Origin: an uncultured bacterium | Lineage (GTDB): Bacteria; Babelota; Babeliae; Babelales; Babelaceae | Reading direction: 5' to 3' | DNA: 64,000 nucleotides | NCBI GenBank assembly: GCA_963722385.1 | Contig: CAVRKK010000002.1 | Coordinates: 192,001 to 256,000 of the forward strand | In this document: piece after piece, positions 7,153 to 33,627 of the stretch | How positions within the stretch are numbered: position 1 is the first letter of the stretch | Layout of the letters: each line of letters begins with the position of its first letter | Program-made: the position numbers and the translations under genes | Notes under the pieces: generated by a model | The model's database searches: none | What the model saw: only the letters and a program-made list of their open reading frames with translations | What the model was told of the DNA's origin: nothing

Positions 7153-8499
7153 ATGAAAAATTGCAATCAACTTATTTTTAGCATCGGTTTGTTGTGCTTT
7201 GCTGCGGCAAGCTTTGGCCAATCAGATGTGGTAATGAGGCAGGATATCCTTGCTCATGATTCGAAATATATCGTAGGAGACGAAGAGACTGAAATTACGA
7301 AAGAGTACATAACTGCGCTGGCCCTTGATGGAATGCGCCGTCTTTTCGAATCTGGCCTTGAATTTCTTAGCAGAGATGCAAAATCAACCATGAGCGAAAT
7401 TGAAAGAAAAGAAGAGGCGGTCGAATGCGCCTTTAAGCATGCTCTCATCTCAAGCGAGAATGACTATTGGAGTGATCATTACATAGCATGCGTAAAGGCT
7501 ACCGGTCAACTCGGCGGCAACATACGTAAAGACTGCGCTGGTAACGGAATTTGCATGAGCCGTTCGAGCCCGACTTTTAAAAATAATAAATTCTATAAAC
7601 CATGTGGATGGCGTGATTTTTCGCTTACGGGATTAGCTTATGACGATTGGTATTATCCTGGGCCTCTTGCAGTCATCTACTGGGCAATGGGAAATGTCGG
7701 GAAAGTTGCTATTGACCTGTCTAAAGATCCAAATACAGAACAAAAATTTCTTGACGATATCAATGCCATTCTTGAAATTATTGAAGCACGTAACCGTATG
7801 GGGCGCAAGGCCTATATTGCTGAGATGGACCAACGCTTCCGTTCTGTCCAGAGCATGATCGATGCCCACGCAAAATCTAAGGTCAATCAACAAGCCGGAA
7901 TTCTTAATCTGATGAATCTTCGTTTAACCGAAGAAGGGGCAAGTAAGTTAGGTCAAGTTGCTTTTGAAGAAGTTAATCGCGCTTATGCATCAAAGCCTAT
8001 CAGCGCTGAAAACGCAAAGGCGCTCGCTCTTTTTGTTTTGAGCAATCCCATAATATCCGAGTTGTTACAAAAGCAAAATGGAGAAGACCTCCAGGATTCT
8101 CTCGATGAAATAATTGAGGCTTATAATCTCATTTTCAACAAATACGTAGAACAAGGTGCTTCGAGCAAGGCTTCAGTGCGCATGTCAGAAAAAATGAAGG
8201 TAGCAACCAAAACGTTGGGGGCATACTACCTTAATGATATGCATGGCTTTTCCAAACAGGAAGTTGAGGCTGATCCGTTGAAAAATGCTTTTAAGATCGG
8301 TCGCATCCTCGGCAAAAATGCGCGCACCGCAGAATATGATACAGAAGAACGATCAGCTGCTCGTCTTACAGAACAAGGCAATCGCATCAATGAGTATCAA
8401 AAATTAAGCGAGCAACAACAGCGGCTTTCGCTCGGCGATGGTGCAACACTGGCCCCTAAGCTCAACGAGAGCAAAAATACGATTAAAGACGAACTTTAA
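7153..8499 (+). CDS. Exported hypothetical protein ending in KDEL
   Basis: 448-aa ORF; signal peptide (...FAAASFG); ends NTIKDEL-stop; followed by a terminator-like hairpin. Confidence 0.85.
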   Translation: MKNCNQLIFSIGLLCFAAASFGQSDVVMRQDILAHDSKYIVGDEETEITKEYITALALDGMRRLFESGLEFLSRDAKSTMSEIERKEEAVECAFKHALISSENDYWSDHYIACVKATGQLGGNIRKDCAGNGICMSRSSPTFKNNKFYKPCGWRDFSLTGLAYDDWYYPGPLAVIYWAMGNVGKVAIDLSKDPNTEQKFLDDINAILEIIEARNRMGRKAYIAEMDQRFRSVQSMIDAHAKSKVNQQAGILNLMNLRLTEEGASKLGQVAFEEVNRAYASKPISAENAKALALFVLSNPIISELLQKQNGEDLQDSLDEIIEAYNLIFNKYVEQGASSKASVRMSEKMKVATKTLGAYYLNDMHGFSKQEVEADPLKNAFKIGRILGKNARTAEYDTEERSAARLTEQGNRINEYQKLSEQQQRLSLGDGATLAPKLNESKNTIKDEL

Positions 8500-8521
8500 A
8501 AACATTAAACATCTATGTTTG

Positions 8522-8554
8522 GAAGGCGCCTCAGTTGCAGGCGCCTTCTTTCTT
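8522..8554 (+). terminator. Rho-independent terminator
   Basis: GAAGGCGCCT-CAGTTGC-AGGCGCCTTC followed by TTTCTT. Confidence 0.7.
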
Positions 8555-8705
8555 AATGGCCCCGTCAGCTTTTGCTCCTGGGAAATGTCCACCACCACCT
8601 CCTTCTCATGGCAACCATATCGAGTTATAACTTTTTTGGAAAGGTGGAAATTAGCTTTGTTTACGACGCAGCAATTCACGTCAATTATCTCGAGCTTTGG
8701 TGGAG

Positions 8706-9902
8706 CTATATTTTTTGTATTATTTCTTCCAAGGCTCGAATAAGCCCTCCCGAATATTGCCAACTAAGAACTTTAGCATCACTCCAGCTACGATTTTCCG
8801 ACCCACCATAGACGACCAAGCTCTGCTGCGGAGTTTTTGGTGCAATTGTTTTCCAGTAATCAAATTGCTTGAAAAAGTCAGAAGCAACCGTTTTAGCAGC
8901 CTTAATTTCGAGAGGAATGGTGTACTGCGACTCCTCAATAATGCAGTCAATTTCGTTTCCTTTACTATCCCGCCAAAAATAAAGAGATGGTCGGCGATCA
9001 AGATTATAATATTGTTTGAACAAATCAGAAATAATAAATGTTTCTACCAGCGCCCCTCGCATATGATGATTCATAACTTCTGTAGAAGACCGAATGTTTA
9101 ATAATGAACATGCAATGCCGGTATCAACAAAATAAAATTTGGGCGATTTGATGAGCCGTTTGCCAAAATTTTCATAATAGGGATAGAGCAAAAAGATAAC
9201 GTAACTTGCCTCAAGTACTGAAATCCATGAGCTAATAGTCTTATGGTCGACACCAAGATCGCTGCCAAGCCCGGAAAGATTAAGAATTTGCCCAGTTCTG
9301 CCGGCACATAGTTGGAGAAAACGTCTAAATAAGTTTACTGATGCTATGTTTTTTATCTGGCGCACATCGCGCTCAATGTACGAAGTTATATAGTGGGAAT
9401 AGACTTTGAGGGGCGGAAGATTTTCTGCGTACACGATGGGATACGCTCCCTGAAATACCGCTTCCTCAATTTTTGAAGGTAGTAATGATGAACCGCTCAA
9501 TTCGTGAATAGAAAGAGGAAAAAGCGTAAATAGTGCAATACGTCCAGCAAGCGTTTGAGTTACCGCTTGATTAACAAGAATATTTTGAGAACCGGTAATA
9601 ATAAAATACCCTTTTTTCTTTTCACGATCTACCATAGTCTGAATATAAGAGAGCAAGCTAGGCACATGCTGAATTTCATCAAGAATGATCCCTGCTTCAC
9701 TTGCAAAATCATTGAGAAACCGGCGAGGGTCATTCGTGGCAATCAATCGGTTATCGAGATCTTCGAGCGAAACATAGCTATGCTTGCTAAAAATACTTTG
9801 AACAAGAGTGGTCTTTCCCGATTGACGTGGACCCAAAACTGCAATCACCGGGAATTGGCTTGCGGCCTCTATAAGCTGATTAGTTATATCACGAGCTATC
9901 AT
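8706..9902 (-). CDS. AAA_14 ATPase with DUF4143 domain
   Basis: Walker A GPRQSGKT, Walker B ILDEIQ, TGS, KSPKFYFVDTG, FWRDSKGNEID...EIK. Start placed at MIARDI (9902). Confidence 0.9.
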   Translation of the reverse strand: MIARDITNQLIEAASQFPVIAVLGPRQSGKTTLVQSIFSKHSYVSLEDLDNRLIATNDPRRFLNDFASEAGIILDEIQHVPSLLSYIQTMVDREKKKGYFIITGSQNILVNQAVTQTLAGRIALFTLFPLSIHELSGSSLLPSKIEEAVFQGAYPIVYAENLPPLKVYSHYITSYIERDVRQIKNIASVNLFRRFLQLCAGRTGQILNLSGLGSDLGVDHKTISSWISVLEASYVIFLLYPYYENFGKRLIKSPKFYFVDTGIACSLLNIRSSTEVMNHHMRGALVETFIISDLFKQYYNLDRRPSLYFWRDSKGNEIDCIIEESQYTIPLEIKAAKTVASDFFKQFDYWKTIAPKTPQQSLVVYGGSENRSWSDAKVLSWQYSGGLIRALEEIIQKI

Positions 9903-9927
9903 ATTAGCGACCCTTCTTCGAGAAAGC

Positions 9928-9964
9928 TGGTACAAATTGGGAATCCAATTCCCAATTTGTACCA
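9928..9964. promoter_or_regulatory. Perfect 17-bp inverted repeat, putative operator
   Basis: TGGTACAAATTGGGAAT-CCA-ATTCCCAATTTGTACCA, 25 bp upstream of the ATPase start. Confidence 0.55.
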
Positions 9965-10115
9965 ATATAGCTCATTTCACAGAAATTTTCAAAAAGATAT
10001 GCGCTTTATTCCTTTATTGCTCTTGCTATTTTTCTTGTATTTGTTAAGCTTGCACCGTAATTTATAAAACTCTTATTGCAAAAATACTTTACCCAGCTAG
10101 AAATAAGGAGAAGCT

Positions 10116-12386
10116 GTGTTCAATTTTTGTTTTGTTATTGTGGTATTAGTTTTTTTGGTAGGGTCATCTCAAACAGAGAGTATACCTATATGTACCGTAT
10201 CCAGTAGTACCAATACTCCATTGCCAAATGGTTCGGGCCCTACTGGGATTACCTTTTCACCCAATGGACTCTATCTTGCTGTTGGTAATACTGTCGCGAC
10301 AGCTGTTACTATGTTCACGGTAGGAATAGATGGTATCATTGACAGTGGCATTTCATACCCTATGCCGGCAGGATCTTCTTTTCCTCAGGTTTTAGCTTTT
10401 TCGCCTGATAGTCATTATCTTGCTACAACTAATAACAGCTCCAATAATATTACTATCTTTACGGTTACGAGCGGAGGTGTGTTAACTAATGGTACCTCTT
10501 ATGCATTACCTTCTGGTGCGCAATTAGCTGGTGCACCAGTCTTCTCTCCTGATGGGCAATACCTTGCAGTGACTGCTGAAAATTCCAATCAGGTAGTCAT
10601 ATTTACGGTAGGATCAGGAGGCGTTTTAAGCAATGGCACTGTCTATGCTATGCCTAATGGTGCTTCACCAGACATACCCGCTTTTTCCCCTGATGGATCA
10701 TACCTCGCAATCGGTGACGACGCTAATAATGCAGTAACTATGTTTAAGGTAGGAAATGGAGGCATTCTCAGTAACGGTGTTACGTACGCCCTACCCTCAG
10801 GATCTACGTCTCCAAGCTCAATCGCTTATTCTCCTGATGGTAGCTATCTTGCTACTTCTAATTTTAGCTCAAATGACGTAACTGTTTTTACGGTAGAGCC
10901 TGGAGGAGTATTGAGTACTGGTATTTCTTATCCGCTGCCTTCTAACTCTTACGATCCAAATTCTATAGCTTTTTCCCCCAATGGTTTATATCTGGTAACT
11001 GCTAACTCATTTAGCAATAATGCAACGCTTTTTAGTGTAGGAGATAATGGTGTTCTTTCTCAGGCAGTTTCTTATAGCTCTGGAGCTCAACAGCTTGATT
11101 ATCTAGCTTTTTCTCCCCGAGGGCTTTATTTTGCAACATCTAATTATGGTTCAACCAGCGTAACGATTTTTACTTTATCTTGTTCAAGTGCTGCTACTTC
11201 ATACCCTTTACCTCCCGATTCTCTCGATCCAGATGCTGTGGTAATTTCAAAAAATGGCTTGTACCTTGCAACAGCAAATTATAATGCAAACAATGTGGCT
11301 TTTTTTAACCTAGAATCTACGGGTATACTTAACAATGGAACGACTTGTTCTTTGCCATCTGGCTCGCTTTGTCCTTCTGGTGCTGCGTTTTCAGCTGATA
11401 CAGCCTACCTTGCAACTTCTAACAGTCAATCCAATGATATTACTCTTTTTAAAATTATGGATGGTCAGTTAATTGCTGGTACTTCTTATCCGCTGCCTTC
11501 TGGGTCTATCAATCCGGTATCGCTTAATTTTTCCCCTCATGATGCCTATCTTGCTGTTGCCAATAACAACTCAAGTGATGTAACTATGTTTAATGTTGAA
11601 GCGGGTAAACTTGTGGATGCTCTTTCTTATCCTTTGCCTCTACCATCTAAAAATCCGACAGGAGTAGCTTTTTCCGCTGATAGCTCTTACCTTGCTACAG
11701 CTAATGCTGGCTCAAATGATATAACGCTTTTTAGCGTGATAAACGGAACTTTAAAAACGTTACTTTCAAAAAATATACCCGCCCAATCCTCTAACCCACG
11801 TTCGCTTGTCTTTGTGCCTGATGCTCAGAGCGAATTTTTCATAGCTACCGCTAATAGCGATTCAAGCGATATAACAATCTTTCCTTTCCAGGAAGGCGTA
11901 CTGGGTAATGGTACTTCTTATACCTTGCCTGCAGGTGATCTTAATCCTCTCTTTATCGCTGCTTCGTCCGATGGTGTTTATCTCGTTAGCGCCAATAGTG
12001 GATCTAATAGCATTACTATTTTCATTGTTACTGATGTTGCCTTAAGCCAAGGTGTTTCTTATAACTTGCCTGCTCAATCAAGTTATGATGTAGCAGTCGC
12101 GTTTTCTCCTGTTCTATCAAATAGTGGATCTATGGTAGCAGCCACCGCTAATAGTTTATCCAATGATGTGTCTATTTTTCCTCTTCTTGGATCAGGAACA
12201 GGAGATGGAGGCAGCAGCCTACCGCTCGGGCTCATTATCGGAACGACTGTTGGCATTCCTCTGGGTATCGGGGCTGTGGCACTCGTAGGCTTCCTTGGCG
12301 CCTTTTTGTTCTATAAGTATCGGCAATGTCAACGTGGAGGAGGAAACGTTAGCTTTAGTGGAGAAGAGTCTACTGATACGCTTTAG
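10116..12386 (+). CDS. Double (14-blade) lactonase-like beta-propeller, single-pass membrane protein
   Basis: GTG start with RBS AAGGAG; signal peptide; 14 AFSPDG-YLA repeats; C-terminal TM segment LGLIIGTTVGIPLGIGAVALVGFLGAFLF and a short tail. Confidence 0.85.
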   Translation: MFNFCFVIVVLVFLVGSSQTESIPICTVSSSTNTPLPNGSGPTGITFSPNGLYLAVGNTVATAVTMFTVGIDGIIDSGISYPMPAGSSFPQVLAFSPDSHYLATTNNSSNNITIFTVTSGGVLTNGTSYALPSGAQLAGAPVFSPDGQYLAVTAENSNQVVIFTVGSGGVLSNGTVYAMPNGASPDIPAFSPDGSYLAIGDDANNAVTMFKVGNGGILSNGVTYALPSGSTSPSSIAYSPDGSYLATSNFSSNDVTVFTVEPGGVLSTGISYPLPSNSYDPNSIAFSPNGLYLVTANSFSNNATLFSVGDNGVLSQAVSYSSGAQQLDYLAFSPRGLYFATSNYGSTSVTIFTLSCSSAATSYPLPPDSLDPDAVVISKNGLYLATANYNANNVAFFNLESTGILNNGTTCSLPSGSLCPSGAAFSADTAYLATSNSQSNDITLFKIMDGQLIAGTSYPLPSGSINPVSLNFSPHDAYLAVANNNSSDVTMFNVEAGKLVDALSYPLPLPSKNPTGVAFSADSSYLATANAGSNDITLFSVINGTLKTLLSKNIPAQSSNPRSLVFVPDAQSEFFIATANSDSSDITIFPFQEGVLGNGTSYTLPAGDLNPLFIAASSDGVYLVSANSGSNSITIFIVTDVALSQGVSYNLPAQSSYDVAVAFSPVLSNSGSMVAATANSLSNDVSIFPLLGSGTGDGGSSLPLGLIIGTTVGIPLGIGAVALVGFLGAFLFYKYRQCQRGGGNVSFSGEESTDTL

Positions 12387-12458
12387 CAGAACCTATAATC
12401 AATTGACCTCTAATTGCCCTTTTTGCCCAGCCAATTGAAGAAGCTGCTAGCCTTTTCA

Positions 12459-13157
12459 TTACGCTGCCGCCTTTTCAAGAAAGATCGCTAGATCGTTATG
12501 CTCCATAAATCGCGCGTAATCTGCCGGCGTTTGCCCTTCTGCTGTTTTTTGAGCAGGATTTGCACCATGAGCAATAAGTATTTCCGCAGCTTCCTTGTTT
12601 CCCTTGAGTGCTGCCTGGTGCAAAGGCGTGGACCCGCCCGCAGATAACTGGGCGTTTACGTCTGCACCTGCGGCGATTAAAAGCTTAAGCACCTCTGACA
12701 TCTTTTTAAAATTGACAACCCTGAAGAGTGGCGTGGTACCGATTTTGTCCCGTTGATTAACGTCTGCTCCATAATCAAGCAAAAGTTGCGTTAACGCTAT
12801 GTTAGGCTCGCCCTGCGAGAAGCTATAATAGAATGGCGTGTTGCCAAAACGATTAGCCTTGTTTGGGTCTGCACCAGCATCAAGCAAAAGTTTCACCATG
12901 GGTACATTGCTTTTGAGCACCGCATAGTGTAATGCAGTATAACCATCATCGTCTTGGGCGTCGACCGCCATGTTCTGTGCAAGAAGTGTTTTAACCAGAT
13001 TAATATCTTGTGCTTCAGCAGCTTGAATCAGCTCTTGTGACGGCTCGCCTGCTGAAACTTTATCAAGCCCATTCTGACCTATACAGGTCATCCAGCTCAT
13101 AAGAAGAAAAGCGAACAGTACCTGTTTCTTTCGGTTTATTAACATAGCACGCCTCAT
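12459..13157 (-). CDS. Exported ankyrin-repeat protein
   Basis: GYTALHYA, GNTPF, GTTPLF and GSTPLHQA repeats with GADVN/GADPN; N-terminal hydrophobic segment. Confidence 0.95.
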   Translation of the reverse strand: MRRAMLINRKKQVLFAFLLMSWMTCIGQNGLDKVSAGEPSQELIQAAEAQDINLVKTLLAQNMAVDAQDDDGYTALHYAVLKSNVPMVKLLLDAGADPNKANRFGNTPFYYSFSQGEPNIALTQLLLDYGADVNQRDKIGTTPLFRVVNFKKMSEVLKLLIAAGADVNAQLSAGGSTPLHQAALKGNKEAAEILIAHGANPAQKTAEGQTPADYARFMEHNDLAIFLEKAAA

Positions 13158-13286
13158 TAATTTACAAAATTATAATATTGCTTATATTATATTATATTAT
13201 ATCAATGTTTTATGGCTAGATGCAATATTTAGATAAGAAAACTATTTTCTGGCATCCGAATCTTTGAGGTGCCTGACGCCTGAAAA

Positions 13287-14198: not shown

Positions 14199-14208
14199 AG
14201 GCCACCTT

Positions 14209-14308
14209 GCGAGCTACCCAAACCTAAAGGTTTTGGGCTTCCTGGGCTGAACCGCTAATGCGCTTTCATATTTCCCAAGCGTTACTTTCCCTGGCTCCCA
14301 GGGTAGTT
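14209..14308 (-). ncRNA. Stand-alone IS605/TnpB omega-RNA-like scaffold (right end)
   Basis: Minus strand ACTACCCTGG-GAG-CCAGGGAAAGTAACGCTTGGG...CCCAGGAAGCCCAAAACC-TTTA-GGTTTGGGTAGCTCGC resembles tnpB 3'-end/right-end sequences; no tnpB ORF is adjacent. Confidence 0.6.
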
Positions 14309-14316
14309 GCCCTCAT

Positions 14317-15887: not shown

Positions 15888-15892
15888 GGCGC

Positions 15893-18800
15893 TTAGCGCT
15901 CTGAGTGATAAAGCAGGAATGCGCTTGTTGGCGTTAGCACAGCGTCCGCAGGCACCATCGTGGTACCTCCCAAGGCACGAAGCTTGGTAGGGTCAGGATT
16001 CAGCAACCGTTTGTTTACCGAATCATAAACAGGGCCAGGAATACCAACTGACTTATCTCCTAAGAGTAGTGACAGCTCAGGATAATTGAGCGCGCCACCT
16101 GTAGGAATACCGTGCACATCATAAAAAACACCACTACGTAAATCAACATAAGCCGGTTGCTCGGTGCCGACCGTTGTACCGGGATAATATATCTTATTGG
16201 TGTCTTCAGAGCCGTATTTATAGAGGTAGCGCTTTTGATCAGAATCGTACACGAACTGCTTGCTCGTTATAAGCCCTTGTGCGTGTTCTCGAGCGCTTGC
16301 TGGCACATTTAAGATAGCAGCAACAGGACCGAGCGCGGTCATCAAAAGTGGCTTGAAGATACCAACGTCACCAAACGCCGTTATGCTTATATAGTTCTTG
16401 AGCTTATACTGAATATCGCGAATTGTTTTGCCACTTGTTGATTGGTAAGCAGGAATAAAGAAGTGAATACCGTTGGTATCTTCAAAAGCGACATAATTGG
16501 CGCCGGTGTTGGCATCAACAAGCCCATCATAGAAAGTAACTTGGTAGTCGGACGTGGTGCCATCAGGCAACTTGACTGCCTGCATCGTAAGCTTGGATCC
16601 GCCTTTTGCTGCTCCTTGGCATTCAATATACGCACCAAGTGGTATCTTTGCTGATGAAAGTCGGCTATCTCCCGTTGCGGCCGGAACGAAGAGCCGCTCC
16701 ACAGTAAACGCATCACCTTTCTTAGTGCCAGCAACCACGAGCAGGTTACCCGCATAGTTAGCATCCCACGTCGCTCGGGCAAATTCAAATACGGGACTTG
16801 AGCCAGGCTTTCTCGAACCAATATAACTGTAAGGCTTGATATATTCAGCGCTTGATTTATAAGTGGCTCCTTTTGGATCAAAAGCAATGACACCACTTTG
16901 TTGCTTCTGGCCTGCCTTAACAACCCACGGCTTGGCCAGGTCAAGGTCTGCGGGATCTATGGCAAGGTATTTGTCAGCATCACCAAGGGCGTTAAAGCCT
17001 TTATAAATTAAGTTTGGGTTCTTATTCGAGGTAAAGTCCATATAGTACGTATACTGGTAATAGTAGCCTCCAATATCGGTACCGAAAGCCTGTGGCATAC
17101 CGCGATTATCATTGCCAATGAACGCAGCAAGCCGGTGATTGGAATCTTCAAGTGCCTGGTACTCAGCAATGCGAGCATGCCCATTGGTATCGAACTCTGA
17201 TCCTGAATACAGATCTATATAGAAAGAGCTGCCTTGAGATGGTTTGGCGAGCGCCATAACGCGTGCACCAGGAATACGTGCATTAGTATATTGCTTAAGC
17301 GTATAGGTTGTATCGCCGAGCGTAATGGTGGGTATACTACTTGGGTAATCCTGCATCACCCCTTTTTTGTCGCCAAGTTCAATCCCTGGCATCGTATGTG
17401 GCACGCCTAAGACTTGCGAACCATCAGCATTCACCACGACGCCTGCTTTTTGGCGCGCAATATCAAGAAGTGCCCCGCTATAGATAGTGGCAGGCAAGCC
17501 TTTACCGTTATAAAGGATACCTACTTCCTGCTCTTTGCCTTCGGGGCCCTTCATAGGGTGCGCAGCGTAATCGAAAATAGATGCAGGTTGTCCATTAACG
17601 GCGTCATTGGCTGCTCCCGTAACAGCATAATACTTATTTTGATAACGTTTAAGATGCGTAAAAGGTGATGGTAAATAGGCAAGCGAACCAAGAAGCTTGC
17701 TTACCGTCACCTCGTCAAGCTGTATCACCGGTGCTGGCGGCGGCGTTGGCTGCTTCACCGGCGTTTGTCGCGTAATAAGCATGTCGAGGGCTTTTCGCAA
17801 AGCTGGCCGAACTTTGCCCCGAAGTTGCGTTAATAAACTACCAGGCGAAGAAACAACGAGTGAGGGGAAAACGCCCTGCGCATTATAAACGGTACCCGTC
17901 ACGAGGCTAATAATATATGCTGGATTACTCTCAAGGGGAATACCGAGCAATTCAGGAGTGATATTGCCTTTTGCATCCTGGTTGGCACCAATGAAGAAGT
18001 CATCAACCTGGCTCAATTTTGGTGGAAATGCCGAAGTTGGTAAAGTCGTAACGTCTTGATACACATACGTGTTATTCTTGGCATCTTCTGGGTCAATCGT
18101 CAACAAGAAATTAGCAAAGCTATAGTGCTTCCACGGCAATTGCGTTACATTCGTGGCTGCTGTGCCGAGCATACTTCTTAACGATGGACTTTTTAAGCTT
18201 GCCCTAACCGCTCCAAGGTTGCTTAACTGAACCGGTGTGCCATTTTCATCGGCCACGATGGTTACCTGGTCTTGGCTATCACGATGATAGATCGTGCCCG
18301 TTATTAAGCTTATGAGGTAGGGTTGCGGGTTCGTAGCTTCGAATGGCTCGCTCCCCACAACGGTGTTATTGGCCCCAAGAGTTTTGGCGACAATAAAATA
18401 GTCACCCGGATAGCTCGATGATGTGTAGACAAAGTCGCCTGCCCGTATGTCATCAATGCTGGTAGCTTGCAACACGATGTTTGGTATCAATTTTGAGGTA
18501 AAAGCAAAGGGCCCCATGAGCTCAAAAAGGAGCCATTCAGATTGCTTTTGCCCAATAAGCCAGAGCTTCCACATCAGATGGGAACTCTTTATGGCGTTAT
18601 TGAGTGCTGGGGAATTTGTCTCAAGGTACGTGCCGAGCAATGAACCGGTACTGTCGGAGACTGGTCCAAGATTAAGCCCTTGATTATAGAGGTATAACGG
18701 CCCGACGGGTATAAAACCATCAACGGCAAGTGTATGCTGGTAGCTTGTGCTTGGATCTAGCCCAAGATTTTGAGCAAGCCCATCAAAGAGTGGTTGGGCC

Positions 18801-21754
18801 GCTGCGGACAGTTGGTCTTTGAGTGATGTACCAACCCCTGCAAATGCCGTGGCAACAGCTGGGTTAGTGGCGGCGCTCAGTACTCTATCAAGATCAGCTG
18901 GTGATGCTTGGGCAAGTGAGTGCGTTATTACTCCATTTTGGATACCGTCGCTAACTGCTTTCGTTATACGATCAGCCAAGGTTGCACCAACCTTATCGAG
19001 AGCTGTCGGCGAAAGATCCTTGATTATAGTAGGATTCAATCCAATAGTCTGAACGAGAGACCCTACAACGCGCGCCGCTGCGTAAACGGCGAAGCGGCTG
19101 AGCACATTTTTGGCAGAAGAATAGACAGGATCATTCGAGCTTTCAATGGCATGGGCGATAGCTTGCACGAGATCAGGCACCACCTTTAAGCCCTTGGTAT
19201 AATTATAAGGGTTTACGTCATATTCTTCATAGAGGCTACCGAGTGCCGTGCTGAGATCTGAGCTCACAACTTCCATATTAGCCTTGCTTTTGAAAACCGC
19301 AAGCATATTGGCGGTGGCTATATAGGTCTCCCCGGTTGGTGTGTACTCAAGAATGCTAAAATCGATTGGCGTCTTGACGAGCGCCATGTCCTGGTCATAG
19401 ATACGTGAAGTGACGACGCTCACAAAATAGGCAAGCTTGCCACTCGGTAGCCCAACCGGGCTAAAGTACTGATCAACCGGAACCAGGTAGTCAGTTCCAC
19501 CATTTTCTAATGTTGTCTTCTTGTTATTATTCTGTGGTGCACATTCATAGAGGGAGACATTAGAGGCAAGGTCTTTTGGCCTCGTAAGGGTATAGCCGCC
19601 ATACGTAAATGGACCCTTTCCCGTTCTTGTTTCTATAGCGGTCTTTAAATTTTTGAAAAATTGCGATATTGCATCAGATGGCGACTTAAAACTTGCCGCG
19701 GCTTGTGCGAGCAGACTGGGATTTGCCTCAAGCTTGCCCATCGTTATATCGGTAAGAGCGTTATCGATGAGGCCATAAATATATTTCACCCGTGGATTGA
19801 CAGACCATGTCACGGAGCCAGGCTGGACTGCGGATATACCCTTCGTTTTTCCACGCGCCACCACGGACCCACCTAGTTTGATTTCAGCAGTACCGCCGCC
19901 TTCATTGACGCAAGGTATAAAGCCAGGTAGAGGGTTCATATCCCTATCAAGGCACATGACATAATCGTAAAGGTCGCTTGCCACTTTTACGTCAGACGAT
20001 GCCTCTTGCGCTTTAAGACTTTTACGGGCTAAGAGGGCCCATTGCGTATCAGGCGTTTGATAAATGAATATTCCCTGGGCATTGAGCGGCATGTCAAAAA
20101 GACCCTTTGATAGCAATGGTGTCGGTGCTATTTCAAGTACCTTGCTGGGATAAGCCATAGCTTGCAAGGTAAAGCCGCCCGATAGTTTTTCGCCACTTGC
20201 GCGAACCACGGGTGCGCCTAGATTGAAGATTCCTGACATGGCTTCATAGGTTGATGGCTGCTTGCCGGTAGGACCGCCGCCGCCTAGATTTTTGCTAATT
20301 TGGTCCGCAGGAGTTAAAAAGAGATTTGTTTTTTCAGTTTTAGTATCATACAATGTATTTGCTAATGATTGCCAGTATTCAGATTCCTTTTTGCCTCCGC
20401 CGCTTAAAGCTTCAGCAGCAGTTCCGCTTGCGCTGATCATACCGATATTACCGTTTTGATCGTACGTTTCAGAAAATGCTATTCCCGTATATAGCTTACT
20501 TGCCATAAGGCGGAGAAAGCGCAACATATTTGTCGCGCATTTGTGATAGGAATCAGATGCCGTTAGAGGACCTAACTGGCGATAAGGATACAAGATATCG
20601 AATGGATCACCTGCACCTAAAAATTCGAGGCCGGTATTGAGGTGAAGCATTTGGCCGGTAAACGAGTCTGATGGGATACCCCCAACGCCCCATGAAAAGG
20701 GGTAATCGCAATCGTTGTAGGCACCCGCTGTTACAAAAAAGTTTGTATTATCTACGACTTGCTCGCCTGTTTTACCCGTTAATTGGCTCCACTCGGCTTG
20801 CCACGACCCTTCGGTAACCGATTTTAAGTAAGATTCAGCTGCAGCAGGATCTTTAACAAGGGAGTAAATGTAAACACTTTTTGCAATATTGTCTTGATCA
20901 ATAAGAGGCGCTAGTGGCGCTAGCCAGAGGCCGCCAAAATATTGAGGTGCCAGAGCTGTCGTAACCTGGGCATCTTTAGCGAGCTTGGCCTGAATGGGAC
21001 CCATGACCCAGTTAGGAACCATGAAGACAAATGCTGACACAATAGTCAGGAATACATGTTGGACAAGAAAATTCTTGATAGTTTGTCCCCATGTTTCTGG
21101 TGTAGGTGCGGCGCCAGCTTCCTTGGCAGCCTGAGAAAGCTTTTCATCGGCATTATTAACCGCATTAGCTTCACTTTGTGCATTTGGTGATTCATTCTCA
21201 AGATTTTTGTCAGTCAAATTAGATACTTCAGTATCCACTTTGCCAACCATATCTTGTGATGCAGTCTTAAAAGTCTCCACCGTTGCTTCAAGCTCACTGG
21301 TCAATTCGCTGCCAGCCTTGCCAAATGCTTGTAAGTTTACGTCCTTTGCTAGATCTTCAGGAAGCAGCTTTTTTAAATCAGTTCCCAGATCAGAAAGCAG
21401 ATTGCCAACTTTTTCAAATTGCTCAGGAGTCAGCTCCGCGATAGTTTCTGCCCCTCCCATAACGTCTTTTAATCCCTCGCCAAAAGTTTCAAAGACCCCC
21501 TTTGCATCAGTCCCTAATTGCTCTAAAACAGCTGAGTCGATGCCTTTAAAAGAGTCTTCGATAGCAGTATTAGCGAAACTTTTTGTCAGATCAGCCATGG
21601 TATTTCCGCCAATGACCTCCCCTAACGAGCTGCCAACGGCTTCGCCTAGGTCACCTGTGAGAGCTTCCATACTACAGACTCGCTGGAAGCCGGTTCCTAC
21701 AGCAATTACGAGAATGGCAAATCTCATGAAGCGGTATAATTTCAAGGCTTTCAT
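15893..21754 (-). CDS. Giant (1953 aa) exported or membrane protein with internal degenerate repeats
   Basis: Long uninterrupted ORF; signal peptide; TM segment HVFLTIVSAFVFMVPNW; recurring Y-x-x-S-L-x-T-G-x-x-Y motif. Confidence 0.85.
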   Translation of the reverse strand: MKALKLYRFMRFAILVIAVGTGFQRVCSMEALTGDLGEAVGSSLGEVIGGNTMADLTKSFANTAIEDSFKGIDSAVLEQLGTDAKGVFETFGEGLKDVMGGAETIAELTPEQFEKVGNLLSDLGTDLKKLLPEDLAKDVNLQAFGKAGSELTSELEATVETFKTASQDMVGKVDTEVSNLTDKNLENESPNAQSEANAVNNADEKLSQAAKEAGAAPTPETWGQTIKNFLVQHVFLTIVSAFVFMVPNWVMGPIQAKLAKDAQVTTALAPQYFGGLWLAPLAPLIDQDNIAKSVYIYSLVKDPAAAESYLKSVTEGSWQAEWSQLTGKTGEQVVDNTNFFVTAGAYNDCDYPFSWGVGGIPSDSFTGQMLHLNTGLEFLGAGDPFDILYPYRQLGPLTASDSYHKCATNMLRFLRLMASKLYTGIAFSETYDQNGNIGMISASGTAAEALSGGGKKESEYWQSLANTLYDTKTEKTNLFLTPADQISKNLGGGGPTGKQPSTYEAMSGIFNLGAPVVRASGEKLSGGFTLQAMAYPSKVLEIAPTPLLSKGLFDMPLNAQGIFIYQTPDTQWALLARKSLKAQEASSDVKVASDLYDYVMCLDRDMNPLPGFIPCVNEGGGTAEIKLGGSVVARGKTKGISAVQPGSVTWSVNPRVKYIYGLIDNALTDITMGKLEANPSLLAQAAASFKSPSDAISQFFKNLKTAIETRTGKGPFTYGGYTLTRPKDLASNVSLYECAPQNNNKKTTLENGGTDYLVPVDQYFSPVGLPSGKLAYFVSVVTSRIYDQDMALVKTPIDFSILEYTPTGETYIATANMLAVFKSKANMEVVSSDLSTALGSLYEEYDVNPYNYTKGLKVVPDLVQAIAHAIESSNDPVYSSAKNVLSRFAVYAAARVVGSLVQTIGLNPTIIKDLSPTALDKVGATLADRITKAVSDGIQNGVITHSLAQASPADLDRVLSAATNPAVATAFAGVGTSLKDQLSAAAQPLFDGLAQNLGLDPSTSYQHTLAVDGFIPVGPLYLYNQGLNLGPVSDSTGSLLGTYLETNSPALNNAIKSSHLMWKLWLIGQKQSEWLLFELMGPFAFTSKLIPNIVLQATSIDDIRAGDFVYTSSSYPGDYFIVAKTLGANNTVVGSEPFEATNPQPYLISLITGTIYHRDSQDQVTIVADENGTPVQLSNLGAVRASLKSPSLRSMLGTAATNVTQLPWKHYSFANFLLTIDPEDAKNNTYVYQDVTTLPTSAFPPKLSQVDDFFIGANQDAKGNITPELLGIPLESNPAYIISLVTGTVYNAQGVFPSLVVSSPGSLLTQLRGKVRPALRKALDMLITRQTPVKQPTPPPAPVIQLDEVTVSKLLGSLAYLPSPFTHLKRYQNKYYAVTGAANDAVNGQPASIFDYAAHPMKGPEGKEQEVGILYNGKGLPATIYSGALLDIARQKAGVVVNADGSQVLGVPHTMPGIELGDKKGVMQDYPSSIPTITLGDTTYTLKQYTNARIPGARVMALAKPSQGSSFYIDLYSGSEFDTNGHARIAEYQALEDSNHRLAAFIGNDNRGMPQAFGTDIGGYYYQYTYYMDFTSNKNPNLIYKGFNALGDADKYLAIDPADLDLAKPWVVKAGQKQQSGVIAFDPKGATYKSSAEYIKPYSYIGSRKPGSSPVFEFARATWDANYAGNLLVVAGTKKGDAFTVERLFVPAATGDSRLSSAKIPLGAYIECQGAAKGGSKLTMQAVKLPDGTTSDYQVTFYDGLVDANTGANYVAFEDTNGIHFFIPAYQSTSGKTIRDIQYKLKNYISITAFGDVGIFKPLLMTALGPVAAILNVPASAREHAQGLITSKQFVYDSDQKRYLYKYGSEDTNKIYYPGTTVGTEQPAYVDLRSGVFYDVHGIPTGGALNYPELSLLLGDKSVGIPGPVYDSVNKRLLNPDPTKLRALGGTTMVPADAVLTPTSAFLLYHSER

Positions 21755-26716: not shown

Positions 26717-26784
26717 TGCTTCTCCTTACTAAGCAGGGGTTTAAAAATATTTCGTATATTATTAAACCCTGTTCACACAGATTG

Positions 26785-28224: not shown

Positions 28225-28472
28225 GTCAGTTCCCCTTAATCAGTAGGTGTCAATTGATTGCGCATTTGATACTTTATGCGCCGAATACCTACTAATTATA
28301 CTCAATTAGAAAAATTTGTAAACCCATTTGTCTATTACTGTTCTTATATTACTTTTTTTGTCACATAATGTTAATAGTATGATCGCACCACTTCTATGAT
28401 GAACTTTTCAAAATGACATTTTAGATCTATAATTACTGGGCAATACCTAAAAACCCAACTGAAAGGAAGTTT

Positions 28473-29795
28473 ATGCGCTCACCGTGTTTACGATTACTCG
28501 TCCTTGGTGCAAGCCTTACGTGTCTGCAGGCAAATACTCTTACTGCTGCTATAAAAGAAATCGTAGGGGCACCTCTTTATTTCGCCTTAGGCCATTATAC
28601 GAATAAAGCAAGCAAAAAAGCAGGAAATTGGACAACACATGATCTCCTTGGTATCAAGCAATCTCCTGCCAATAAAATCTTAGCGCTTGACTTCAAGTTT
28701 CTTTTTAACGAATTTGGAAGAGAATTTTTGGCGAGCAACCCATTGCCCTCAGCCCTCACTTTTCCTCCTATCAAAGGACCTCTCATCCTTGCGCCTGCAC
28801 GCATGAACGCTTATGAGGCCGGAATTAAGTATCTGACCATTATTGAGCTTTTTAGCAAGGTTGGCGAAGCATGGATTGAATGGGAAAAAATGCACGGATT
28901 ACTTCCACAGAATAGCACCGTCAAAAGTTTGCCGCTCAAAAATGGAACGGTTGCTGGATCGCTATCACAGCTTCCTGAAGATATAAAAGCGTGGGCAGTT
29001 GATTACTACGTAAATACCCCGGTAGAATATATGGAAAATCTTCCGGATCAATTGCACTACCGGTTTTCTGAATTGGCAAAGGACCAGCAATCAGCCACCA
29101 TCGCGCTTGGCTATTTTTTAACAGCGCTGGGAACAACGGTGCTCACGCGAATGTTCGGTAAAACCTCATGCAATGCCCTAAACCAAAAGTGTGGTTTTAA
29201 CCTTGGTGAAAATACACCCTATAAGCTAACAAGAAGCTTTATTTCAACATTTATTGGCTTTGCCACATCATATTTTATAATGCCATATAATATATATTGG
29301 CTTGAGGAGTTATCAGATTATTTAGGCTATTATGACCCGAACGCTACAAAGCTCAATCACGCATCATACGTTGCTGCGTTCAAAGCACCGTTTGCCTGGG
29401 AAGGTGTGCGTCAACAAGCAATCGCCATTGCCAGCTTGGTAACCGCGATTGCTTTACAGATATCTAATGGCAACCAAAATGTAATCACCCATCCTGCATC
29501 ACTGGTTAAGGCAATCCTTGCGGTAACCGTAGCTGTTGCCGCTTCGAGTGAGTACTATTTTGCTCCCGGTATTGTCAGTGATAATGCAAGCAAAGCTTGG
29601 AACAAATTGATAGATGTTGCACTTCCTTCCTGGATAGGCTTTCTCAGTTTTTTGATCGCTCAGCTTGAGGAATCAGACGAGCAAGCTGAAATATTGTTTG
29701 CGCATAGCAACAATACCCATGATACACAAGGTGACCAACGCGAGGAACAAAGTCATCGTGATCAAAATGACCCCGCTCTCAAAGATGAGCTTTAG
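28473..29795 (+). CDS. Multi-pass membrane hypothetical protein ending in KDEL
   Basis: Signal peptide; several hydrophobic segments; acidic tail ending PALKDEL-stop. Confidence 0.85.
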   Translation: MRSPCLRLLVLGASLTCLQANTLTAAIKEIVGAPLYFALGHYTNKASKKAGNWTTHDLLGIKQSPANKILALDFKFLFNEFGREFLASNPLPSALTFPPIKGPLILAPARMNAYEAGIKYLTIIELFSKVGEAWIEWEKMHGLLPQNSTVKSLPLKNGTVAGSLSQLPEDIKAWAVDYYVNTPVEYMENLPDQLHYRFSELAKDQQSATIALGYFLTALGTTVLTRMFGKTSCNALNQKCGFNLGENTPYKLTRSFISTFIGFATSYFIMPYNIYWLEELSDYLGYYDPNATKLNHASYVAAFKAPFAWEGVRQQAIAIASLVTAIALQISNGNQNVITHPASLVKAILAVTVAVAASSEYYFAPGIVSDNASKAWNKLIDVALPSWIGFLSFLIAQLEESDEQAEILFAHSNNTHDTQGDQREEQSHRDQNDPALKDEL

Positions 29796-29825
29796 TCCCT
29801 CGATCATAGACGAGTTAATGTGCTC

Positions 29826-29856
29826 TACGGGGCAAGCAGGCTCTGCTTGCCCCGTA
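29826..29856. terminator. Perfect 14-bp hairpin between convergent genes (terminator or REP-like)
   Basis: TACGGGGCAAGCAG-GCT-CTGCTTGCCCCGTA. Confidence 0.6.
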
Positions 29857-29857
29857 C

Positions 29858-30298
29858 TTACTCAATTTTTTCTATTAACGATAAGCGTGCTGCATAATGA
29901 TTCTTTTTAAATTGGCACGTAAGCGCTTGACTGAAAATCCTATATGCCTCTTCATAAGTAAGATAATCGGCAGGGAAGACAAGAATATTCGCATTATCAT
30001 CTTGCCGAGATGCACATGCTATAGAGACATCCCATACGACAGCCGCATAAACACCGCTAAAGCGATTAGCCGCCATAGCCATACCAGAGCCCGTACCACA
30101 CATCAAAACGCCCATATCGGCAGCGCCACTTTGAAGAGCCCGAGCCACCGCCTGGGCAAAGATAGGGTAGTCAACACGCTCATCGCTCATCGTTCCCTTG
30201 TCGAGCCATTCGAATAAGATAGCTCCATCAGACGTGTGCTTTTTAAAAAATTCTTTCATGCCAAAGCCACGATGGTCGGCACCAATAGCAATAATCAT
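29858..30298 (-). CDS. rpiB: Ribose-5-phosphate isomerase B
   Basis: GADHRG, DYP, CGTGSGMAMAANR, DDNANIL. Confidence 0.93.
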   Translation of the reverse strand: MIIAIGADHRGFGMKEFFKKHTSDGAILFEWLDKGTMSDERVDYPIFAQAVARALQSGAADMGVLMCGTGSGMAMAANRFSGVYAAVVWDVSIACASRQDDNANILVFPADYLTYEEAYRIFSQALTCQFKKNHYAARLSLIEKIE

Positions 30299-30451
30299 AT
30301 AAAACCTTCGCGTAAATAGTATTTAAAAGCTTATAATAACTTGATCACAATTTTAAAGCTTTGATCATGCAGGCTTGGACTTTTGTTTACACACGCGTTA
30401 AAAAATGTGATAGGATATTCAAGCTTATCCGATATAGAGCAAAGGAACATA

Positions 30452-31510
30452 ATGAAAAACTACTTCTTGGCGATTGTAATAGCTCTCGGCATGCAAGTAT
30501 ATACCCCAACTTTTGGCATGGCCGCTATCCAAGACCTTGGCAGCGCCCTTGTCTACTGGAATGCAGGCAACGCAGCGAACTGGCTGAGCGCCGAATTTGG
30601 TAATTATACCGCCACCGAAATATTCCAAGTCAAGGGCCTAAAGCACCACTTCTCACGACTGAACGTCAAAAATATCTATAACGCGCTCTTTAGGCACTTG
30701 CTTGCCCTGCGATTCGGCTTGTTGCCCAAGGCTATAGCAGAACCCACAAAAACGTTGGAATTTTTCTGTTACGAATCCGGTCGGCAATGGCTCACTTTTT
30801 ACGAATTTTTAAAATCAGGCCATCAGCTGGGCACCCATTTTTTTGAGCTTCATGATGCCGACTATAGACGTAGCCTCGCTCTGCCAAAAGAGCCTTGTGA
30901 TGCTTTGATTGAGGAGCAGGGCGGCGGATGCTCGATGCAAGAAAATAGCTTCAAAGATTTTATAGAACAACTGCCTAGCGGTTCGATCACTTTGGAGGTT
31001 CTCGAGGAAATACATATGCTGACGGTCGCCAGCCTCTACTTTGGCGTTGGTTATGCGGTGGCATATCTGGGCAGAGCATTGGCAGAATCATTCCGGCAGA
31101 TAGCAACGAGCCGCGGCGTACATTACATGGAAAAAGAGCCGACTAAAAAAATTACCGAAACAACGCTCAGCGTTACCTTCGCTCAATTCCTCAAGCCCTT
31201 AGTATTTCACCACCTGCACGAGGGGCTCTCGTTTTTTTACTTATATGACGATCGTTATATCAAACTCAACGAACTCGCTTATCGAACCGGCGACAAATTT
31301 TTGTGGGCTCAACAATGGCTTGTTGATACCAAAGAAGTGGCAAAGAGGGTTTGGACGGGTCAACCGATCAAAATTCTTTCAACCAACACCGCTACCAATC
31401 ATGGCACAGCAGGTCCACTAACAAGCGCTCTTGTTGAGGATTATGGTCAAAACCAGCTCATTGTCGAAAGCATAGTACAACCTGATATTGAAAAATTAAA
31501 AAAACAATAA
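30452..31510 (+). CDS. Exported or membrane hypothetical protein, probable distant paralog of 28473..29795
   Basis: RBS AAGGA with ATG at 30452; signal peptide; alignable blocks described under findings. Confidence 0.8.
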   Translation: MKNYFLAIVIALGMQVYTPTFGMAAIQDLGSALVYWNAGNAANWLSAEFGNYTATEIFQVKGLKHHFSRLNVKNIYNALFRHLLALRFGLLPKAIAEPTKTLEFFCYESGRQWLTFYEFLKSGHQLGTHFFELHDADYRRSLALPKEPCDALIEEQGGGCSMQENSFKDFIEQLPSGSITLEVLEEIHMLTVASLYFGVGYAVAYLGRALAESFRQIATSRGVHYMEKEPTKKITETTLSVTFAQFLKPLVFHHLHEGLSFFYLYDDRYIKLNELAYRTGDKFLWAQQWLVDTKEVAKRVWTGQPIKILSTNTATNHGTAGPLTSALVEDYGQNQLIVESIVQPDIEKLKKQ

Positions 31511-32733
31511 TGTGGACACTCTTATTACTAGCACGCCGCTTTTTATGGGGTACAAGGGAAAAGAGTATTGCCGTGATGACGGGTATTTGCTTTATGAGCA
31601 TAATTCTCGGATCATGTGCCCTTGCGCTTGTTGCCGCGGTAATGAGCGGCATTGAAAAAGAGACGCGGGCGGTTGTTCAGGGAATCAACCCAGACCTTAT
31701 CATGCTTGGCGAGGGCAAGCCGCTCAATTATCCAAAGATTCAAGAATTTATCGCTAAAAATTATCATGATTCTATTGATGGTATCAGTCCGAGCATGCAA
31801 GGTCACGCGTGTATAAAAGCCCCTGATATCAATGCGATAGCAGCGCTTGTAATGCTCACGGCAATCGACCCCGACACCGAGCAGTCTGTCAGCAAGCTTC
31901 CCCTGCTGATTAAACAGCCAAAAGCAGCGTCCTTGGGAGCTGTGCTCGAAAACGATCAGCTCTTAATCGGACAGTCGCTTGCCTCTCTGCTGGGAGCCAA
32001 GCCGGGTGACCCGATTACGCTCCTCTTTGCACCTGAGGTTGAAAGTCCCGAAAATGTTATGCTTGAGCAGCGCCAAACACATATAGGTGGCATATTTAAA
32101 TCAGGTATCGAAGATATCGATGCAAACGTAATTTTTTTAAGTATCTCGCTGGCCAAAAGCTTATTTCCCGACAAGGGAATTACGCACATCGGTCTTAAGC
32201 TGCGTAATCCTGATAAGGAAAAAGAAGTGATGGCATCACTCAAGAAAGCACTCGGCCTCGCCGTATTTTCATGGAAGGATCTTTATCCGGCGCTCTTAGC
32301 TGCCTTAACACTTGAAAAATATGCCATGCTTTTTATTTTATCGCTCATAGCAATGGTAGCAAGCATTAACATAATGGCGCTCTTGTTCATGTATATTGCG
32401 TATAAAAAGGCGGAGATTGCTGTCTTGCGAACCCTTGGCTTTACGAGCAGAGACGTAATGCTTCTTTTTTTATTAATGGGTACGGGTATAGGCCTTGTCG
32501 GAGCAAGTATTGGCGTCACCCTCGCATCTATCGCTAGTTTCTTGCTCAATCGCTACCCCTTCATCCAGCTTCCTGACGCGTACTACGTTTCACACCTCCC
32601 GGCGCACATGACCATGCCTATCGGCGCAACCGTAATTATCCTTGTACTCGCGATTAGCTTTATAGCAGCACTTATCCCAGCACGCTATATCAGTAGGCTT
32701 GATACCGCAGCGCTTTTAAAAAGAACGGTTTGA
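31510..32733 (+). CDS. LolC/E-type (MacB/FtsX-like) ABC transporter permease
   Basis: LVAAVMSG, GIFKSG, WKDLYP..L..EK, EIAVLRTLG, YYVSHLP, ALIPAR. Confidence 0.9.
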   Translation: MWTLLLLARRFLWGTREKSIAVMTGICFMSIILGSCALALVAAVMSGIEKETRAVVQGINPDLIMLGEGKPLNYPKIQEFIAKNYHDSIDGISPSMQGHACIKAPDINAIAALVMLTAIDPDTEQSVSKLPLLIKQPKAASLGAVLENDQLLIGQSLASLLGAKPGDPITLLFAPEVESPENVMLEQRQTHIGGIFKSGIEDIDANVIFLSISLAKSLFPDKGITHIGLKLRNPDKEKEVMASLKKALGLAVFSWKDLYPALLAALTLEKYAMLFILSLIAMVASINIMALLFMYIAYKKAEIAVLRTLGFTSRDVMLLFLLMGTGIGLVGASIGVTLASIASFLLNRYPFIQLPDAYYVSHLPAHMTMPIGATVIILVLAISFIAALIPARYISRLDTAALLKRTV

Positions 32734-32810
32734 ATCGCGAAAGTAAATGCCCCCGAGCACTTAGATAAGCAGGGGGAAAAGGCTCTTAGGGGCAATTTAC
32801 GTTTTGTATC

Positions 32811-33002
32811 CTATTTATAGCGATTAATGCGCGAAAGGTCTGGATAGCCAAACCAACGAGGCCCGTAAAATCCACCGACCACGAGCTTGTTCGCCTTCTT
32901 CTTATAGCTGCTCAAGCCTTTGCTCCGGAGCCCACCGCATCGGTGGCAAATATGCGCTTTTTTCGAACGCGCCGCTTCTAGCTTACGATTAAAGTTTCTC
33001 AT
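32811..33002 (-). CDS. Small basic protein with CxxC
   Basis: RBS AAGGA; 63 aa; K/R-rich; CHRC. Confidence 0.45.
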   Translation of the reverse strand: MRNFNRKLEAARSKKAHICHRCGGLRSKGLSSYKKKANKLVVGGFYGPRWFGYPDLSRINRYK

Positions 33003-33219
33003 GGCAGCTTTCCTTTCTTTCTTATATCTTTATTGTAAAATATTGAATATAAAAATTGCAATAATTTGTTTATAAGTAATTGCTTGATGAGCCAAATCAC
33101 CTTAAAGATAGCAGAATCCAGCTCATTTGCAAGGCTACCCCTCATCGCTTGACTTTGCACAAAACTGCTAATAGGCTGGTTACGAATATTAAACCAAAAA
33201 CTCAAAAGGAGAGTTTGCG

Positions 33220-33627
33220 ATGCAAAATTCTATGAAAAGCAAGTTTTTACTTGCTGCCAGCTTATTAGCGGTCTTGGGCACTTCCACCAGCGTAATGGCT
33301 GGCAAGCATAAGAAGGGAGATCGCCGTAAAAGCAGTAGCGAGAATTATTACACTAATACGAAAAGGAACGTATTCTGTACTCAAGTTAATATTGATGCTG
33401 ACTTCAATTTCTCTGTTGCGGTCGCCGTGATTCTTAAAACAGCTGGAACATTGGCAGCACGAGGCCTGCTAACACCGGAAGTTCAACAAGCGCTGGCTGA
33501 TTATGCTAAATCCGAAGCAGCCAATAATCCAGCGGCGAATGAAGAGCTTGTCAGCTTCATTGAAAAGCTGAGTGCGCTCCAGAATGTCCAGCCTGCTGAG
33601 GCAAACAACAAGCATACTGAACTATAG
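33220..33627 (+). CDS. Small exported protein ending in HTEL
   Basis: RBS AGGAG; signal peptide ...SVMA; ends NNKHTEL-stop; followed by a terminator-like hairpin. Confidence 0.8.
   Translation: MQNSMKSKFLLAASLLAVLGTSTSVMAGKHKKGDRRKSSSENYYTNTKRNVFCTQVNIDADFNFSVAVAVILKTAGTLAARGLLTPEVQQALADYAKSEAANNPAANEELVSFIEKLSALQNVQPAEANNKHTEL

Follow-up and report, generated by a model that had tools for sequence, protein, structure and literature searches.

Proteins resident in the eukaryotic endoplasmic reticulum (ER) carry a signal peptide and an exposed C-terminal motif (PMC2140024), and the KDEL receptor binds its ligands in the acidic lumen of the Golgi and releases them in the ER (PMC9220330). The same two elements are found in the AB toxins (cholera toxin A, LT of Escherichia coli, exotoxin A of Pseudomonas, and K28 of yeast) and in a ribosome-inactivating protein of Streptomyces scabiei, single catalytic proteins whose producers are extracellular (PMC9220330, PMC6471375, PMC13592729). 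Here we describe KDEL-type tails in an uncultured bacterium of the Babelota, centered on a stretch of 64,000 nucleotides (the window; positions 192,001 to 256,000 of contig CAVRKK010000002.1, GenBank assembly GCA_963722385.1, genome G000) that encodes three exported proteins, P0001, P0002, and P0003, ending in KDEL, KDEL, and HTEL. In contrast to the toxins, the carriers number 13 to 14 unrelated proteins, mostly orphans, in an intracellular parasite, and in contrast to ER residents they are encoded by bacterial genes; their sequences predict a mechanism like the KDEL mimicry of toxins but at the scale of a proteome, bacterial use so far having been described for single toxins.

Parasite use of the receptor outside the toxin route is known from cowpox virus, a protein of which engages it to retain MHC-I in the ER (PMC9220330). 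Host ribosomes synthesize that protein, which has direct entry into the ER, whereas a bacterial protein would need prior export into the lumen. Several unrelated effectors of Legionella carry C-terminal CAAX prenylation motifs; these are injected into the cytosol by a type IV system and lack signal peptides, and in G000 neither CAAX ends nor peroxisomal targeting signal 1 (PTS1) ends are enriched. "Ca. Nucleophilum amoebae" offers a precedent for bacteria in the perinuclear space, a compartment continuous with the ER (PMC4642509), and Rickettsia SrfD is an ER-targeted effector, but one that relies on several domains and binds Sec61 (PMC11258249); no set of KDEL-tailed proteins is described for either in the available text of these two sources. 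A literature search, outside of which most subscription papers fell, returned no report on KDEL in Dependentiae or Babelota and none on a KDEL-tailed bacterial secretome. The tail system is real, statistically strong, and evolutionarily maintained, and it is apparently undescribed.

Enrichment of KDEL-type tails among exported proteins

The initial annotation of the window had described three unrelated proteins with signal peptides, hydrophilic spacers before an ER-retrieval motif, and downstream hairpins, and each element of this description stands. The termini and their codons read as it gave them, with every motif at the extreme C-terminus, and they are the sole xxEL ends among the called open reading frames (ORFs) of the window. 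All three proteins pass our signal-peptide rule, and Kyte-Doolittle hydropathy over the 10 residues preceding the motif is -1.31, -1.85, and -1.52 for P0001, P0002, and P0003 (across the motif set the median is -0.97, versus -0.24 in other signal-peptide proteins; p = 0.009). The folding energies of the downstream hairpins (Table 1) compare with a genome median of -11.4 kcal/mol and a 10th percentile of -21.3 kcal/mol. We found no homology among the three proteins and no Pfam or NCBIfam match to any of them, a catalytic A domain included. The structural model of P0001 has a predicted local distance difference test score (pLDDT) of 68 (54 in a first model), falling below 50 over residues 426 to 448, where the tail is disordered; neither model gave a Foldseek match at an E value of ≤0.001, and the best structural match (Z 7.4 over 102 residues) is generically helical.

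To place these ends in their genomic context, we called ORFs of at least 100 amino acids (aa) in G000 with a simple longest-first caller and assigned signal peptides by a hydrophobicity rule of our own, in place of Prodigal and SignalP; 610 of 1,269 ORFs pass this rule. Ends matching [KHR]xEL occur on 13 of these 610 proteins and on 2 of the 659 others (Fisher p = 0.003), and 1,000 tail shuffles gave a mean of 0.70 and a maximum of 4 against the 13 observed, so that the annotation's estimate of an excess beyond chance is upheld, in signal-peptide proteins only. For one of the 13, an FkbM protein with the end KKEL, the signal peptide was probably called falsely, and of the two outside the set, one has a signal peptide by eye and the other is the housekeeping tRNA-guanine transglycosylase (Tgt), ending RDEL, which is within chance. 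The claim that housekeeping genes lack such ends consequently holds within the window, as given above, but not genome-wide. The 15 carriers fall into 15 separate BLAST families. With the window excluded, 10 of 576 signal-peptide proteins carry the motif where 0.44 would be expected (Poisson 5.5e-11), and with a beta-propeller family (described below) removed, [KH]xEL ends 13 of 578 signal-peptide proteins (0.31 expected) and 1 of 643 others (0.39 expected).

The signal resides in the order of residues. The scrambled or altered motifs [KH]xLE, EL[KH]x, and [KH]xDL are all absent from the 578 signal-peptide proteins; taken singly, neither E at -2 nor L at -1 is more than barely enriched; and EL is enriched at the last position only, with 23 occurrences there versus 1 to 9 at each of the preceding 19 positions. 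Among the 18 signal-peptide proteins with xxEL ends, 13 have K or H at position -4, whereas 10 different residues occur at position -3. An origin by chance, from K/E/L-rich helical tails, or as relics on genes acquired from eukaryotic ER proteins is very improbable in our assessment. Bacterial termini here are indeed K-enriched 1.5- to 2-fold, and chance cases exist (RDEL on Tgt and KDEL on an AAA ATPase), but the excess outside the window persists when the expectation is inflated 2.5-fold (Poisson 2.9e-7), the scrambled motifs lie at background, and the conservation described below weighs against chance and relics alike, such that this reading is largely refuted. KKxx (10 versus 2.9) and KxKxx (10 versus 2.4) ends are also enriched in G000, but we left them uncounted because termini are K-rich in all protein classes, and the motif set shows no excess of N-glycosylation sequons (13 versus 14.6 +/- 3.5). 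On the evidence of these counts and of the genome comparisons that follow, the tail is an ordered terminal motif under selection, confined to exported proteins and to one clade of a phylum of intracellular parasites.

Conservation and distribution of the tail

We compared P0001 with 12 full-length nonself homologs, setting aside P0023, which is truncated, and P0007, P0012, P0024, P0026, and P0027, which are fragments or near-copies. Nine of the 12 have KDEL-type ends (KEEL twice, KDEL, KKEL twice in near-identical proteins, KQEL, KVEL, KEDL, and REDL) at 25 to 65% identity and with unalignable linkers before the motif, whereas [KRH]x[ED]L occurs internally in the family only 2 times in 5,777, which argues against chance. 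The three homologs without a tail (ending QIIQ, KIQQ, and, in genome G001, KIVN) form a single clade (support 89/95), implying one loss. P0020, which ends KEDL, is listed by NCBI as belonging to Gammaproteobacteria. Within Babelota the P0001 family is present in 2 of 261 genomes, near-absence in the phylum being combined with presence in at least one other (P0020; P0025 lies on a 1.8-Mb contig), a distribution that suggests exchange between coresident symbionts. A profile search gave no further homolog of P0001, and searches of the Atlas and of plasmid, viral, and metagenome contigs were empty.

P0002, whose family is present in 3 of 261 phylum genomes, has a syntenic ortholog in G001 that at 28% identity also ends KDEL past an unalignable linker; no homolog was found among 8,000 scored candidates, and the Atlas search was empty. 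For P0003 we found no homolog in 5 genomes and no credible one in 40 other genomes of the family, the single match there (E = 0.047) not being confirmed as an ORF; a strain variant in one sequencing run has one residue altered and keeps HTEL. Elsewhere, ortholog pairs keep the tail with a changed spelling (HDEL/KEEL at 28% identity, KSEL/KDEL at 29%, and KTEL/QSEL at 37%), and the KSEL/KDEL pair has paralogs ending KDDL and HDEL. The expectation that orthologs would keep the motif is borne out for most homologs, in varied spellings, and fails for some, including the G001 ortholog of P0001.

Two of the carriers are members of ordinary bacterial families. Among the best 30 D-Ala-D-Ala dipeptidase loci from 135 matching genomes, the protein ends KSEL in G000 and EKEL in genome G008, and none of the other 28 has a tail; among the best 30 DUF1653 loci from 91 matching genomes, the G000 protein ends HEEL and the other 29 lack a tail. 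As judged from these loci, the tail is an added extension in both families, which argues against relics of eukaryotic ER proteins.

Across the phylum, we counted the DNA pattern [KNHQ][DE]E[LF]-stop in 230 genomes and then read matches in frame. Counts were highest in G000 and G001 (21 each; a scrambled pattern gave 4 and 2). All 21 matches were examined in G001, where 8 end ORFs of at least 130 aa: a credible signal peptide is present in 7 of these, and the eighth is an AAA ATPase. KTEL and QSEL proteins add two more (13 of 23 matches of a second pattern fetched). In genome G015 (8 of 8 examined), 7 matches end ORFs from two families, 4 of them with signal peptides, and G008 (5 of 8 examined) has one secreted KDEL protein. 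The 152 matches read in 30 other Babelota genomes (part of the matches in each, with xxEF-coded matches skipped in some) gave no credible secreted [KH][DE]EL protein, the nearest cases being two secreted candidates, ending NEEL and QEEL, and a PilM-like protein ending KEEL. None of 414 complete ORFs in the loci read in these 30 genomes and in the ortholog loci ends in [KHR]x[ED]L, and 14 matches in three Campylobacterota genomes included no secreted tailed protein. The remaining ~195 phylum genomes were judged from counts only, at which level weak cases may be missed. In a GroEL tree of 21 genomes, a single-gene analysis, G000, G001, G008, and G015 group together as a clade (91/96; recovered in 93% of bootstrap trees). 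Across the genomes read and counted, the trait is confined to this one clade of Babelota and is not phylum-wide.

Four genomes that appeared enriched by count, G004 (13), G028 (10), G044 (14), and G107 (13), were rejected since nearly all of their matches are out of frame, as were numerous noncoding matches in G001 that have an AGGAGG core. Repeated noncoding CAGGAGGA[AG][TC]TTTAA sites (several on contig C1 of G001; C2:7702 and C2:408087 in G000), likely to be ribosome-binding sites or members of a repeat family, inflate the pattern counts.

Candidate readers of the tail

The 16S rRNA of G000 has 0 mismatches to TM6_681, a 16S probe for Babelota (Dependentiae, TM6) (PMC12172432). The genome is 1.60 Mb in size and encodes three ATP/ADP translocases (TLC) in tandem, where 14 control genomes have none, two type I signal peptidases, and a cluster for type II secretion (Table 1) whose family matches, the PDZ domain of GspC included, mostly fall under curated cutoffs; the PDZ-like region of GspC spans approximately residues 248 to 340. 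Small genome size, ATP/ADP translocases, and two gspD secretins are traits of Babelota (compare PMC4776705), which are described as parasites that live inside protists, use type II secretion, and in one isolate have 44% signal-peptide proteins (PMC4776705, PMC6561590, PMC4378268). A type II system was reported in all 7 TM6 genomes studied (PMC4776705), and in Babela it is the sole secretion system reported (PMC4378268). The organism of the window is an obligate-intracellular-type parasite of this phylum and, as the annotation had supposed, not free-living.

The receptor code, as measured in mammalian cells and not in protists, allows L, F, or M at -1, prefers E over D at -2, leaves -3 free, and accepts K, R, H, N, or an aromatic residue at -4 (PMC2140024), and the fixed and free positions of the observed tails fit it. 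KDEL, HDEL, KEEL, KVEL, KEDL, REDL, KTEL, HEEL, and QSEL are all ends of human ER proteins, and every KxEL spelling save that with proline is said to work, while the main text of that source makes no mention of HTEL, KSEL, or KKEL (PMC2140024). From this agreement, together with the enrichment and conservation, we consider the host KDEL receptor (ERD2) the likely reader of the tails, be it through retention or through a toxin-style route. Because this receptor acts in the lumen of the Golgi and ER, tailed proteins would have to enter the host secretory lumen, for which secretion by the type II system into a compartment connected with the ER would be the simplest route.

Between the two uses of the receptor, we favor retention as somewhat more likely than not; in this reading the tails would mimic the ER-retrieval signal and keep bacterial proteins in an ER-type lumen. 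The proteins would be exported by Sec with removal of the signal peptide and then cross the outer membrane, most likely by type II secretion (the genes for both steps are present); they would be released into the lumen of a compartment in exchange with the ER-Golgi system of the host, and the host receptor would catch those that escape into the Golgi and send them back, such that about a dozen bacterial proteins would remain in the ER-type lumen that surrounds the parasite rather than be secreted. The habit may have arisen in the ancestor of the one clade, individual genes gaining and losing tails since. More tentatively, and with less conviction than for retention itself, we suggest that the clade lives in the host ER or in a compartment continuous with it and uses the lumen as an extended periplasm; in this still speculative picture the parasite would stock the lumen with enzymes of its own, with an oxidoreductase resembling PDI, and with peptides that tune the receptor, all held in place by the receptor.

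Alternatively, for proteins released into a phagosome, a vacuole, or the outside of the cell, the same receptor could serve a toxin-style ride from Golgi to ER followed by ER-associated degradation (ERAD) and delivery to the cytosol, as it does for cholera toxin, LT, exotoxin A, and K28 (PMC9220330, PMC6471375), or the tailed proteins could act as receptor decoys. Such a ride would give a bacterium that secretes by a type II system a path across the vacuole membrane. Decoys would saturate or trigger the receptor, and bare linker-plus-tail peptides in G015 would suit that role: some members of tandem arrays of 55- to 82-aa secreted low-complexity peptides (Table 1), which have no Pfam match, end KKEEL, KEKEEL, or KKDEL with little beyond linker and tail, next to neighbors without a tail. 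We judge both versions rather unlikely. No catalytic toxin domain was found by Pfam in the 14 G000 proteins ending [KH]xEL; a secreted CxxC (CGAC) thioredoxin protein of G001 that ends KEEL, and whose best NCBIfam match is a PDI domain (under the cutoff), suits work in the lumen; and most signal-peptide proteins are tail-less, which argues against a general effector route. Retention is favored over toxin-style delivery on account of the negative toxin-domain search and the one PDI-like carrier.

A reader on the bacterial side must also be weighed, and here a second set of Leu-ended tails is relevant. A lactonase/WD40 beta-propeller family with ~48 copies in G000, many fragmentary, has a layout resembling that of eukaryotic type I membrane proteins: a signal peptide, propellers, a Gly/Ser stalk, a long Gly-rich membrane segment, basic residues, and a short tail composed of SVN[FY] and an acidic-Leu end. 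These ends (QDEL, NEEL, GQEL, VEDL, NDAL, and others) seldom carry K or H at -4, and the propellers show a mild excess of N-glycosylation sequons (274 versus 244 +/- 13). The propeller tails look like a signal separate from the KDEL-type tail, possibly a second host-sorting mimic or a GlyGly-CTERM-like export anchor.

PDZ domains bind C-terminal hydrophobic residues, with specificity set by the last and third-last residues, and the PDZ domain of GspC selects substrates in Dickeya. The KDEL-type tail could similarly be a signal for the PDZ-like region that GspC has in G000, for a tail-specific protease, or for an anchor, its likeness to KDEL being convergent, and the acidic-Leu ends of the propellers are indeed placed where only a cytosol-side reader could meet them. 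We hold a bacterial reader to be quite improbable nonetheless. The third-last residue is free in these tails while the second-last (E) and fourth-last (K, H, or R) are fixed, the reverse of what a PDZ domain would select; type II secretion was reported in every one of the TM6 genomes (PMC4776705), but the tail occurs in one clade only; and 565 of the 578 signal-peptide proteins lack it. The gammaproteobacterial homolog of P0001 keeps its tail, which suggests a reader outside the bacterium, shared by two phyla. Finally, no ERD2-family gene was found in 41 genomes of the family, in a search without a positive control whose controls gave nothing.

Several observations weigh against host-receptor retention, the reading that we favor. 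Cultured Babelota are reported inside a vacuole or wrapped by mitochondria (PMC6561590, PMC4378268), a third isolate also shows mitochondria (PMC8812299), and the word "endoplasmic" is absent from the first two of these papers. The tail is found on only ~2% of signal-peptide proteins and is patchy inside its clade: the G008 ortholog of P0002 is shorter and has none, nor do the orthologs of P0001 and of the dipeptidase in G001, a genome of the same genus, nor the G000 homolog of the CGAC thioredoxin protein, nor any of 12 homologs of a 249-aa HEEL protein. A D-Ala-D-Ala dipeptidase has no obvious task in the ER lumen, and the signal-peptide rule overcalls, as with the G001 AAA ATPase ending KDEL and the FkbM protein ending KKEL. 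The xxEL and xxDL ends of the propellers lie behind a membrane anchor, beyond the reach of a lumenal receptor, and Leu-ended tails therefore have other readers in G000. The initial proposal of release into the host secretory lumen is accordingly supported in part: of its four refuting conditions, the three assessed here left it standing, and it gains from the enrichment, conservation, and lifestyle and loses from the restriction of the trait to one clade and from the tail-less orthologs.

A proteome-level set of tails, carried by ordinary enzymes and across divergent orthologs, would represent a new scale of host-address mimicry and a candidate answer to the question of where Babelota proteins exported by Sec and type II secretion act. 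For an uncultured parasite clade, the subcellular niche is thereby predicted in a form that can be tested. If the clade does live in the ER, counts of KDEL tails could predict an ER niche of uncultured symbionts from the genome alone, including the unrelated Gammaproteobacteria that share the P0001 family, and would provide a cheap genomic marker for other ER-dwelling bacteria.

Features of the locus

Table 1. Features of the window and related loci in G000, G001, and G015 (coordinates without a locus prefix are those of the window)
Feature	Position	Strand	Remarks
P0001, 448 aa	7153..8499	+	Exported all-helical orphan; signal peptide, disordered tail; ends NTIKDEL
KDEL codons and stop of P0001	8485..8499	+	
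Terminator-like hairpin, then T-rich run, 3' of P0001	8521..8549	+	-22.8 kcal/mol over 70 nt
P0002, 440 aa	28473..29795	+	Exported orphan between trxB and rpiB; ends PALKDEL
KDEL codons and stop of P0002	29781..29795	+	
14-bp hairpin separating P0002 from convergent rpiB	29826..29856	.	-30.6 kcal/mol
P0003, 135 aa	33220..33627	+	Small exported orphan; ends NNKHTEL
Terminator-like hairpin ending in T run, 3' of P0003	33649..33694	+	-25.2 kcal/mol
Probable distant tandem paralog of P0001, without motif	6046..7119	+	BLASTP 21% over 230 aa, E 2e-4 (weak)
Distant paralog of P0002, without motif	30383..31510	+	Ends KLKKQ; hhalign probability 95, E 3.5e-8
Propeller-family member	10116..12386	+	C-terminal membrane anchor, tail TDTL; excluded from main count
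Propeller-family member	4024-5109		
Type II secretion cluster (G000)	L439:10049-19336		Two ~1000-aa GspD secretins, GspL/PilM, GspM, PDZ-bearing GspC
Secreted CGAC thioredoxin protein (G001)	L106:1815-3020		Signal peptide; ends KEEL
CGAC thioredoxin homolog without tail (G000)	L440:101-1129		
Tandem arrays of 55-82 aa secreted low-complexity peptides (G015)	L139:201-1122, L141:878-1327		[WF]QLP[SP]GxGVG motif

P0002 has two weakly hydrophobic segments and an acidic linker before KDEL, and P0003 has one weakly hydrophobic segment. The P0001-family profile matches the gene in G001 that corresponds to the upstream paralog at 7.6e-11. P0002 and its paralog (window 28473-32733) flank rpiB in both G000 and G008, the slot is syntenic in G001, and the paralog overlaps or abuts a lolC/E-like permease gene. 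Over the end of P0002 (29194-29868), a contig from a soil sequencing run has zero letter differences, and this run may be the source sample.

No Rfam match was found within the window. It also contains a 1,953-aa ORF (15893-21754) without a Pfam match and genes for a DDE transposase (36856-38019), a TnpB-like remnant (48255-48725), and a HicB-like antitoxin (50272-50706).

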